A stretch of 63,630 nucleotides of DNA, the filler included, from Collodictyon triciliatum (lineage: Eukaryota): assembly GCA_043381765.1 (NCBI GenBank). It is 4 parts of 4 records of this genome, joined end to end, with 100 filler letters (N's around TTAATTAATTAA, not from the genome) between each part and the next. Parts side by side here need not be neighbours in the genome. Positions count along the whole stretch, not along the records: positions 46,204 to 61,338 come from JBHJMP010001101.1; 3 more parts are not named here. One strand, 5' to 3'. Made by a program: the position numbers and the translations under genes. Shown here piece by piece: positions 52,501 to 55,500 of this stretch (its first letter is position 1; each line of letters opens with the position of its first letter). The notes beneath the pieces were generated by a model. That model saw only the letters and a list, made by a program, of their open reading frames with translations, made no database searches and was not told the DNA's origin.

Positions 52501-55500
52501 AAATACCTTTGAAGCCCAAGGTTTATTATACCAACTTTCTCAAGGGAAGTCGCATAATCGACATGCTTTTCGCCAAGTGTTCTCATGCGAATGTCCAGTG
52601 TCTTTTTGTATGCCTCCAAAGCTCCTTTTAGCCTGATATTACATAAATTTCATTTCTTTCCTTCCTTTCGTAAAAAATCAAATACTAAATATAATTGCAA
52701 AATAATTACTCTTTCGAATCATGACTGATGTCTCCAATCATTTCATAGCAGGTCACAACATTCGGATGATTTTCACCAAGGGCAGCAATCAAAATATTCA
52801 GTGATTGCTTTAGTGAAGATAAGGCCTCAGTTTTCCTATAAAAAAAAAAGGACAATTTTTTATATGTGGGGAATTAAATGATAATTGTACGAAATAATCT
52901 CGGCTCCAAAGTAGCGTCCATGCAAATGGGGTCTAGGAAACTACAATTTATGACTTCTATCTTACACAGATTGAAAGAAACACAAAGACTGTATGTCAGA
53001 AAATCTAACAATTAAAAGTCCTAACCTTCCACTGGCGAGATGAACGTTTGCAATAGACTGGAATGTTGAAGCAACAGATGCATGCTTAGCTCCCAGCGAT
53101 TTTTCAAAAATTGATTTCGCTTTTTCGTAGTAAAACATAGAATCTTCATTTCTAAATGACTCCATGAAATTAATCTTTTGTAAGCACAAATACATGATAT
53201 TTATAGTCAATTTGAATTAAACGGATGTTTTACTTTTTCCCTGCCAGATAGACAAGCCCATAGTTTTGATAGGATATTGCAGCAAGAGGATGCTCATTTC
53301 CGACTTTCTTTTGGCGGATTTCCATGGCCTTTGTGTATTCAGCCAGAGCTCGCTCAATCCTATGATGGATAATTTTTATAACAAAAACTTAAAATTAATA
53401 AATTAATTATAAAGAGACAGATAATATTGAATTATTACTTTGATTGCTTCACATAAATTTCTCCGAAGCGGTCGTATGATTGAGCTACTTGTAAGTCATT
53501 CTCGCCAAGTTTTTTGATTTTCAAGTCCAGTGATTTCTTGTATTCAATAATAGCTTCATCGATTCTGGGCAATAAATCTAATCAGAACGCTTTCTTTAAA
53601 GATGATTTAAAGGTTTTTTTTTTGAAGTGGTTGGTGAATCTTACTTATCCTGTTGCTGGTAGATAAATCCCATCTCTTCATGAATAGTGGCAATACGGAG
53701 AGAATTATCTTCATTTTTCTCAACTGAATCAATGCATTTCTTGTAATAGACCATAGATTCAGCCCAGCTGTTTAATAATTTTTTATTTTACAAATAAATT
53801 TATACATATATAATCACAAATTGATTTGTCTTTTTTGTTTCACTTTTGAAGGTTTCTGTATACACGACCAAGATTCAGGTAATCGATGGCCTTCAAATCT
53901 GTAAATTAATCAGACTTAATATCGATATATTTATTAATTTTCATGGAATCAATTCTTAAAAATATTATTAATTTCATTATATCATAATTATTATTTATTG
54001 ATTGCATACCTTCTGATTGGTGTTTTCCGAGACGCACATTAAGAAGATACAACAGAAATGAGTTCTCAAACGACTCCAAGAAAAAATTAACAAGCAGATC
54101 TCCTACATTATCCAAAGACTGAAACCAAAAAGATAATAAAATATTAACTTAAATAATTAATCATAATTTCATTTTTGACCTATGACATACCCAAAACGAA
54201 AGTAAATAAAAAATTGACTAATAAACCTTCGCCAAAGCTCCATAAACATCTTTGTAGTTTGCTGCTCCGCTTGTGTTGATTGCTCTCCAGCAAGTAAAGA
54301 ACTCGTAGCGATGGCGACCACTGAGCATGATGATGATTACCTATGCATAAATGATAAATTAAATTACAAAACTCTATAGATTATGATTAGAAATTCAAAA
54401 AATGAATGAATGTGAGAAAAGTACATGTTTTTGCTTCATATATTCGACAAGCAAGTCAAATAAGTTTCCTTTCAAAAGTTGGTAGCATATTTCAGCTACA
54501 AGCTCCTCATCCGCATCAACAGCCTCACAATATTGACCAAAAAGCCATTTTCCATATTTTCCATGATTTTTTTCCATCTCTTTCTTTTCGGAGAAATAGA
54601 CTTTTCCAGTGGTCTCCAGAAGCAGTTGGTGGAAGTACATGTATCTATCAAAATAAATTTTAAATTAAATCCAGCTTCTTTGAATTGCATCAAAGGTACC
54701 TATTTACATATTTGAATATTTTTTTTCCTTTATTCGATTCAAATACATATTTGAATATTAAATAAAATAATACCAACCTTCCATTACGGACAAAAAGCGA
54801 CTCGATGAGGGTAAAGAAGAAGGATTTCCTATTTTAACGAAAGTATATAAATGAATGAATTCGACAGGGGAGTCATTGAGAAATACGTATTAATTTAAGA
54901 GCATTTATTTTAAAATAAGCTAACCACTCAGCAAGCTCAAATTCTGCGCCAATCGCATCTTCCATGTATTTTTCCAAATCACCTTCACTCAGGCCGATAC
55001 GAGAAACAAAGAGAACCTTCATCGACAAGGAGACATACTCGACCTTAATTGTCCCTTTACCATCAGATGAGGAAACTGTATTTCAAAGAATAAATGAAAA
55101 ACATAGAGAGCGATTCAGTTTTCTTGGACTTTTGAATTATGAAACAAATGCTCACATTTTCTATCAAACTTCAGTTGCCAGCGTTGGATAATTAGAGTAT
55201 AAAGCTCAATAACGCCATCGGTCGAAAGCAGGGTAAGCAGTTCATCATCAAGCTTCTCATAAACACCGAAAATCCTGACTTCATCCAGGATGATGCGGAG
55301 ATAGAGTGGATGGCCTATTTATAGAATCAGAAATTTAACGACCAAATCATTGAATTAAATCTATCAAAGTATATGCTACTGTAAGGGACTGTTCTTAACA
55401 TGATAGGGTACAGTAACCCCACCAGTGTGTTCGAAGCCATCCAGAATCATTCTAAGTTGCTTCTCATTCAAAGTCTTGTCATATCGAATCAGGAATGATT

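Follow-up and report, generated by a model that had tools for sequence, protein, structure and literature searches.

What does it mean when the exons of a gene follow, one after another, the repeats of the protein that it encodes? The question is raised by a minus-strand gene of Collodictyon triciliatum (GenBank assembly GCA_043381765.1) that lies in the 63,630-nucleotide (nt) stretch of DNA analyzed here, hereafter termed the window, on the part that comes from record JBHJMP010001101.1. Six consecutive exons of this gene have nearly the same length, share one intron phase at both ends, and have the period of a tetratricopeptide repeat (TPR). A sequence-only reading of the locus had taken this layout for a combinatorial means of diversifying a sensor. 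In this report, we found that the units are old, dissimilar and conserved by position, and that the window contains no orphan TPR exons; these results speak against such a function. The array is probably an old and fixed relic of tandem duplication, its members being constitutive exons of a seven-repeat TPR solenoid of the kinesin light chain (KLC) type. The protein in question would belong to the STAND (signal transduction ATPases with numerous domains) class and resemble the NOD-like receptors (NLRs).

Extraction of the intervals bore out the basic layout proposed in the sequence-only reading. Six consecutive minus-strand exons, one of 123 nt and then five of 126 nt, are each preceded by AG, followed by GT and in phase 2 at both ends (one base lies ahead of the whole codons and two behind them), and the next exon, of 471 nt (52427-51957), is likewise phase 2/2. 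The introns between the six TPR exons are 80, 79, 82, 190 and 77 nt long. Phase 2 is found in all of the last eight of the gene’s 31 introns, versus 6 of 23 in the rest of the gene. The chance of eight phase-2 introns is P ~2e-5 at the in-gene frequency and 1.5e-4 at a frequency of 1/3; the one-phase run in the array is more than chance.

The further claim that each exon encodes one TPR stands as regards the 42-residue period but not as regards the register. The TPR-plus-module stretch of P0002, a homologous protein from Diphylleia rotans, was modeled with AlphaFold (486 residues, 24-row alignment, mean predicted local distance difference test score of 86, >95 across the TPRs). When positions are carried over through the gap-free alignment, every split codon of the array (7 of 7) maps to the final residue of the turn, three residues long, that connects helix A with helix B. 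An exon is thereby predicted to encode a helix B, then the linker and the helix A of the following repeat, rather than one whole TPR. The first helix A is supplied by a 55-nt exon upstream, and the last helix B opens the 471-nt exon. The B-linker-A register agrees with the Pfam alignments, in which single units cover TPR_12 positions 20-59 and TPR_10 positions 19-42. Taken alone, five of the six exons match Pfam TPR_12 at E <= 0.001 (19.7-29.8 bits, all under the 30.1-bit family cut-off). TPR exon 1 has no Pfam match alone and scores E 1.5e-15 with the unit profile described below; the peptide quoted in the sequence-only reading is the translation of TPR exon 3. Whole arrays of the homologs do pass the cut-off, at 126-136 bits (136.5 bits in P0001). 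In Foldseek searches, the P0002 array was closest to the TPR domains of KLC1 and KLC2 (7ai4_A, E 4.3e-10; 5oj8, template-modeling score by target of 0.91).

Has the array changed since it arose? Word-based protein searches and an exhaustive HMMER search found only four close relatives, P0001, P0002, P0062 and P0063, which are four distinct Trinity genes in the D. rotans transcriptome (EukProt); the word-based search missed P0002 and hence was not exhaustive. The 286-residue TPR stretch has no gaps relative to P0001, P0002 and P0063, i.e. all three of the homologs that span it. P0062 starts inside the second unit and shows one 1-residue gap. Further, each of the window’s units has its nearest match in the corresponding place of the array, both in P0001 (6/6) and in P0002 (6/6). 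No variation in exon number or order is present among the four D. rotans homologs in the units that they span. Because the alignment is gap-free and the similarity runs position by position, the seven-repeat array appears to predate the divergence of the D. rotans paralogs and to have been static since.

The units themselves have diverged widely. The six share 17-34% residue identity, and their DNA identity is 0.48-0.60, compared to 0.50 +/- 0.03 for shuffled sequences. The introns of the array are no more alike than background (0.46-0.63 for the ~80-nt introns), and no DNA repeat family covers 52507-53767. A profile of 18 units, six from the window and 12 from P0001 and P0002, was searched against all six-frame pieces of the window. 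It recovered the six exons, all with E <= 1.5e-15; the best of the remaining matches (E 0.63) was the half-unit that opens the 471-nt exon. This search found no further TPR unit, whether inactivated, truncated or on the opposite strand, in the 63.6-kb window, which represents this locus only; tblastn of the whole model gave 0 matches in the window outside the gene. Orphan TPR exons were found neither in the introns nor elsewhere in the window.

A plausible course of events would begin with an ancestral 126-nt unit that comprised helix B, linker and helix A, with a phase-2 intron in the A/B turn as its boundary. This unit may have multiplied through tandem duplications, each of which spanned an intron. 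The introns that flank each new exon would then be copies of one intron, and therefore every new exon would be symmetric. The array would have been complete before the gene family split, with no unit gained, lost or exchanged since, and its six exons are presumably included constitutively.

The 471-nt exon probably arose by the same mechanism on a larger scale. Over its first ~115-135 codons it repeats the beginning of the last exon, with the last TPR helix B and a helical module, and the ~25 codons at its end duplicate the TPR linker and the last helix A. In the first of these copies, 69 of 135 residues are identical, base identity is 62% and third-position identity is 38%; at such a low third-position identity, the duplication is old. 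The tail resembles the end of TPR exon 6 and, still more, the matching stretch of P0001. The simplest origin of this exon would be a tandem duplication with breakpoints inside TPR exon 6 and the last exon; its symmetry would follow because it is flanked by two copies of the same intron. One helical module is present in P0001, P0002 and P0063, and two are present in P0062 and in the gene of the window. Those of P0062 lie at residues ~205-520, and the first has a helix-A-like tail, as in the 471-nt exon. In a FastTree phylogeny of seven short sequences, the window’s two module copies are sisters (support 0.87). This suggests that the modules of the window gene and those of P0062 were duplicated independently, but the grouping may also stem from concerted evolution or from an error in the tree. 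When the initial 230 residues encoded by the last exon served as the query of the exhaustive HMMER search, 750 matches were obtained at E <= 0.001, among which only P0062, P0001, P0063 and a 77-residue fragment (P0065) cover the module; the rest match the pentapeptide end.

Repeat turnover in this gene needs no introns, because its only young repeats, the WD40 blades, lie inside one exon. The youngest pair of blades is 93.7% identical over 190 nt, apparently the result of a recent duplication within the exon.

The array is part of a gene model of 32 exons (Table 1) whose 31 introns are all GT-AG. The median intron is 91 nt, exons 1-31 average 134 nt, and the open frame comprises 2,167 codons, or 2,156 after the shift of one donor. 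P0001, a transcript-derived protein, is collinear with model residues 27-1360 (50% identity), and P0002 aligns to residues 609-1348 (45% identity). Spliced contigs are available from two public runs, X1 and X3, which are presumed to be RNA; a third, X2, provides 5 partial pieces only. The contig evidence covers 15 of the 76 joints and, of the 45 rows that have letters between, 12. In the rows listed, 12 of the 31 predicted introns are matched by a joint within 3 nt, four of them exactly. Joints 58290 to 58386 and 57980 to 58065 link the CH exons with the DUF4062 exons. In the array, joint 52835 to 53027 of a divergent contig places TPR exons 4 and 5 side by side, and a near-identical contig of 618 nt joins the 471-nt exon to the last exon (51957 to 51855). 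The weakest part of the model is the exon 1/2 junction. Two splice sites were rejected by reference to P0001: the donor of exon 17 at 55390 was dropped for 55423, since the alignment showed an 11-residue surplus, and an acceptor at 56161, which lies between exons 13 and 14, was passed over because the short in-frame stretch that it adds (56161-56119) runs into a stop, whereas 56118 fits P0001.

Table 1. Positions of the gene, its TPR array and the other features described in the text, counted along the window.
Feature	Positions	Strand	Phase, scores and content
Whole 32-exon gene	49524..59054	-	Open frame; GT-AG at 31 introns; collinearity with P0001; spliced contigs
CH domain exons	58386..58916	-	CH 23.1 bits (exon 2 alone); 42.9 bits in P0001; cut-off 26
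DUF4062 (TIR-like), three exons	57265..57979	-	Exon 9 alone 26.9 bits (cut-off 24.7); exon 7 19.3 bits
Walker A P-loop (GIGKS) exon	56272..56450	-	Weak NACHT, AAA_16 and NPHP3_N matches (exon alone)
55-nt exon	53844..53898	-	Phase 1 in, phase 2 out; helix A of first TPR
TPR exon 1, 123 nt	53645..53767	-	Phase 2/2; linker one residue short, without GxxHP-type motif
TPR exon 2, 126 nt	53439..53564	-	Phase 2/2; TPR_12 E 0.001
TPR exon 3, 126 nt	53234..53359	-	Phase 2/2; TPR_12 E 6.8e-7
TPR exon 4, 126 nt	53026..53151	-	Phase 2/2; followed by 190-nt intron without TPR remnant
TPR exon 5, 126 nt	52710..52835	-	Phase 2/2
TPR exon 6, 126 nt	52507..52632	-	Phase 2/2
471-nt exon, chimeric	51957..52427	-	Phase 2/2; module copy and helix-A tail
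Last exon, 2,332 nt	49524..51855	-	Helix B, helical module, pentapeptide repeats, at least 7 WD40 blades, two Sel1-like repeats
WD40 blades, 135-nt tandem DNA repeat	50140..51052	-	~6 copies; repeat families D17 and D18

The predicted protein consists, in order, of a CH domain, DUF4062, a NACHT-like P-loop domain, seven KLC-type TPRs, the helical module, pentapeptide repeats, WD40 repeats and Sel1-like repeats. The Pfam scans covered single exons of the window and the first 1,121 residues of P0001. In P0001, DUF4062 scores 42.5 bits (cut-off 24.7) at residues 379-470 and the NTPase is found at residues 618-845, which places DUF4062 directly N-terminal to the NTPase. All scores for this NTPase are just under their cut-offs: NACHT 25.3 bits (26.7), nSTAND1 24.5 bits (27.1) and NPHP3_N 23.0 bits (24.8). 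The window’s own model shows the Walker A motif GIGKS and a Walker B motif of the hhhhDD type. The 6 Pfam families that reach E <= 0.01 in the scanned 1,121 residues of P0001 do not include NB-ARC, and no NB-ARC match was found in the single-exon scans of the window. Everything from the helical module of the last exon onward is encoded by that one exon, in which the WD40, pentapeptide and Sel1-like repeats are without introns; WD40 reaches 177.5 bits there, in 7 stretches. A mode of action can be proposed by analogy alone, following a 2026 preprint (bioRxiv 10.64898/2026.05.01.722283): the NACHT-like NTPase may be kept inactive by the repeats (TPR, WD40 and others) as long as no ligand is bound, and oligomerization may then activate the N-terminal, TIR-like DUF4062 domain.

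More remote matches proved not to belong to the family. The TPR-plus-module stretch of P0001 matched 9 proteins of similar length besides itself (20-27% identity) and 41 shorter ones (21-30% identity); these are generic TPR_12 proteins. Likewise, a metagenome scan with the last exon led to a locus (L001) that is 32% identical in the pentapeptide/WD40 part only and is not a relative of the TPR array.

Several points weigh against the view that the array is an old and constitutive relic. The comparison set is small: four homologs from one other species, of which P0062 lacks the first unit. The unit profile contained the window’s own units, and thus there is some circularity in its strong scores, which does not extend to the lack of other matches. 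One contig joint inside the gene, 57486 to 57635, matches no predicted intron. Skipped isoforms may exist, given that 15 of the 76 joints and 12 of the 45 rows were listed. The matrix used to score splice sites (see below) is crude, having been built, with a leave-one-out scheme, from only 31 introns. Finally, many contigs in X1 and X3 are 85-95% alike on the gene (120 + 107 and 140 + 117 under 95% identity) and therefore represent close paralogs or alleles in the source organism.

An important question is whether the exons could instead be cassettes, with the six TPR exons and the 471-nt exon being skipped in varying combinations to yield TPR sensors of varying length and surface. We consider such regulated splicing unlikely. 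It is compatible with the phase of all seven exons (2/2), as the loss of any one keeps both the reading frame and the alternation of A and B helices. To that extent, the earlier claim that units can be skipped, duplicated or swapped without a frameshift survives: removal or doubling is harmless to frame and helix order. A precedent exists in the leucine-rich repeat (LRR) exons of brown-algal ROCO genes, which are 72 bp long and in phase 2, and for which the available portion of one report describes alternative transcripts (Teng et al. 2024, PMC11378527). Also, the single module of P0001, P0002 and P0063 could reflect the skipping of an exon of the 471-nt type just as it could reflect a single-copy gene. 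On the other hand, the four transcript-derived homologs retain every unit that they span, and the two isoforms listed in the P0001 cluster are both 2,619 residues long. The units are position-specific and conserved by position, and their splice sites are not weak. Donors score on average 5.76 in the array versus 4.56 in the rest of the gene, and acceptors 4.92 versus 4.72; the splice sites of the array are no weaker than the gene’s others. The 471-nt exon is retained in the single near-identical contig found there, and no joint that skips a TPR exon is found among the 15 of 76 listed.

A broader proposal would have a TIR-like/NACHT family far removed from the brown algae, with its nearest relatives in the CRuMs flagellate Diphylleia, keep its TPR and module exons in one phase while the sensor is lengthened, shortened or re-spliced unit by unit. 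The traces of this process would be the apparently independent duplications of an exon of the 471-nt type, here and in P0062, and the many transcripts that are 85-95% alike; the seven-unit array would be the conserved core. We regard this proposal as doubtful at best.

It is very unlikely that the locus is one snapshot of ongoing exon shuffling among paralogous loci of the kind described for Ectocarpus. The gene does have 126-nt exons in the repeat-per-exon layout of 13 repetitive Ectocarpus NB-ARC-TPR genes (PMC3341825), and it belongs to a multigene family, as judged from the four D. rotans paralogs and the many similar contigs in X1 and X3. The seemingly independent duplication of the 471-nt exon here and in P0062, with the tree support given above, also fits such a process. 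Nevertheless, the debris of shuffling is missing from the introns and the rest of the window, no pair of units is alike in DNA, the number of units is constant among the four homologs, and both the exon register and the class of NTPase differ from those of Ectocarpus.

The parallel gain of introns, by which an intronless array would have received later, independent insertions at the same proto-splice motif of each repeat, is hardly credible: the junctions do share an A-rich context (AA|A, AG|G) at a conserved Lys/Arg/Asn turn codon, and the introns show no similarity above background, but this scenario would call for eight independent insertions in one phase and at one structural position (for phase alone, P ~1e-4 to 2e-5), the WD40, pentapeptide and Sel1-like repeats of the same gene have no introns, and the 471-nt exon shows that duplication across an intron has occurred in the gene.

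We return to the array as a relic of tandem duplication, and to what it implies. A striking one-phase, repeat-per-exon layout is, by itself, no sign of a generator of diversity; here it accompanies an old, unchanging array that is conserved by position. The notion of combinatorial sensor diversification is thus not upheld at this locus. Further, the traceable duplication that led to the 471-nt exon illustrates how symmetric phases can be a by-product of tandem duplication across an intron. The gene would be a second, apparently independent case of 126-nt TPR exons in a STAND receptor, and it has an unusual architecture (CH, DUF4062, NACHT-like, TPR, pentapeptide, WD40 and Sel1) in a little-studied group of protists. 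If its DUF4062 is a TIR-like NADase, an activity reported for this domain in a 2026 preprint, the protein would be a candidate NAD-depleting receptor outside animals and bacteria. Literature searches for TPRs with one repeat per exon, or for Diphylleia with NACHT, returned nothing relevant. Those for the D. rotans genome returned no report of a nuclear genome among the matches listed, which concerned organelle genomes or other organisms.

Several other features of the window deserve mention. Two Sel1-like repeats lie ~248 nt apart at 49540-49860 on the minus strand; P0001 has one. The pair looks like an 82-codon duplication within the exon that is private to the window’s gene. Joints 49589 to 49837 and 49601 to 49849 of divergent contigs had suggested an extra intron there, but they are better explained by the spacing of two Sel1-like repeats where relatives have one. 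Upstream of the 3' end of the NLR-like gene, in window coordinates, the plus strand has long open frames at 47527-48813 with a high content of K, R, S, T and P. On the other side of that gene, at 59840-61294 on the minus strand, is a gene for a Rab1-like small GTPase with at least five short introns; four or five CT..AC joints in it are borne out by near-identical spliced contigs from X1 and X3, which differ from it at 0-1 positions per piece. Open frames at 61700-62600 (plus strand) carry kinesin motor motifs of the SSGKTHTM and SSRSHS types, which suggests a kinesin gene toward the end of the window. Microsatellites with units of 4-12 nt are abundant in the window (e.g. 3390-4300, 20740-20970, 25350-25730, 29340-29510 and 43460-43900), and the N runs at 46150-46200 and 61390-61437 are flanked by long homopolymers or AAT-type microsatellites. 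A perfect inverted repeat across an N run (61323-61454) is probably an artifact.

How does this gene compare to known systems? Among named proteins, those that come closest to its product in architecture are NPHP3, NWD1/NWD2 and TEP1, the DUF4062-NACHT proteins of animals. According to the available portion of a recent preprint, DUF4062 is a TIR-like NADase in TEP1, with E1008 as the catalytic residue, and is found beside NACHT in NWD1, NWD2 and NPHP3 (bioRxiv 10.64898/2026.05.01.722283). The protein of the window shares with them the succession of DUF4062, a P-loop (in its case a candidate for the NACHT type), a helical region, and then TPRs (as in NPHP3) and/or WD40 repeats (as in NWD1/NWD2 and TEP1), and P0002 has a sub-threshold match to TPR_NPHP3 (68.4 bits; cut-off, 100). 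It differs from all of them in having TPRs and WD40 repeats together, an N-terminal CH domain, a private helical module, and pentapeptide and Sel1-like repeats. The solenoid itself is most like that of KLC1 and KLC2 (TPR_12, TPR_10), which provide the best structural match and share the 42-residue repeat and the GxxHP-type linker. By contrast, the protein context of KLC1 and KLC2 is unrelated, and sequence identity to them is 21-25%.

Among genes with a repeat-per-exon layout, NB-ARC-TPR genes are reportedly subject to alternative splicing, to go by the title alone of a paper by Teng et al. (2023, Plant J). The exons of the window resemble those of the ROCO LRRs and of the gonadotropin-receptor LRRs, as far as the accessible text of PMC11378527 describes them, in being of equal length, symmetric in phase 2 and devoted to one solenoid repeat each. 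The ROCO genes differ in that their repeat is an LRR and in that both alternative transcripts and shuffling are reported for them in that text (PMC11378527); the repeat of the window’s gene is a TPR, and neither phenomenon was seen in it, with 15 of the 76 joints available.

The closest parallel remains Ectocarpus, and the precedent invoked in the sequence-only reading is a real one. In the available portion of Zambounis et al. 2012, the TPR domain consists of 42-codon exons in 13 of 24 NB-ARC-TPR genes, the repetitive genes are singled out by a filter for in-frame exon pairs of equal length, and inactivated TPR exons lie in introns (PMC3341825). The same text describes the Ectocarpus exon as a whole 34-residue TPR plus linker and notes that exon content differs between paralogs (PMC3341825). 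In both systems, a STAND NTPase has a TPR domain built from in-frame 126-nt exons and belongs to a multigene family. In the gene described here, unlike in Ectocarpus, the NTPase is NACHT-like rather than NB-ARC and lies behind DUF4062, the exon is predicted to comprise helix B, linker and helix A rather than a whole TPR with its linker, the locus is free of pseudo-exons, and the units do not vary among the four homologs. Judged by its closest relatives, moreover, the source organism lies outside the brown algae. The gene is thus best seen as an independent, frozen instance of the 126-nt TPR-exon layout.

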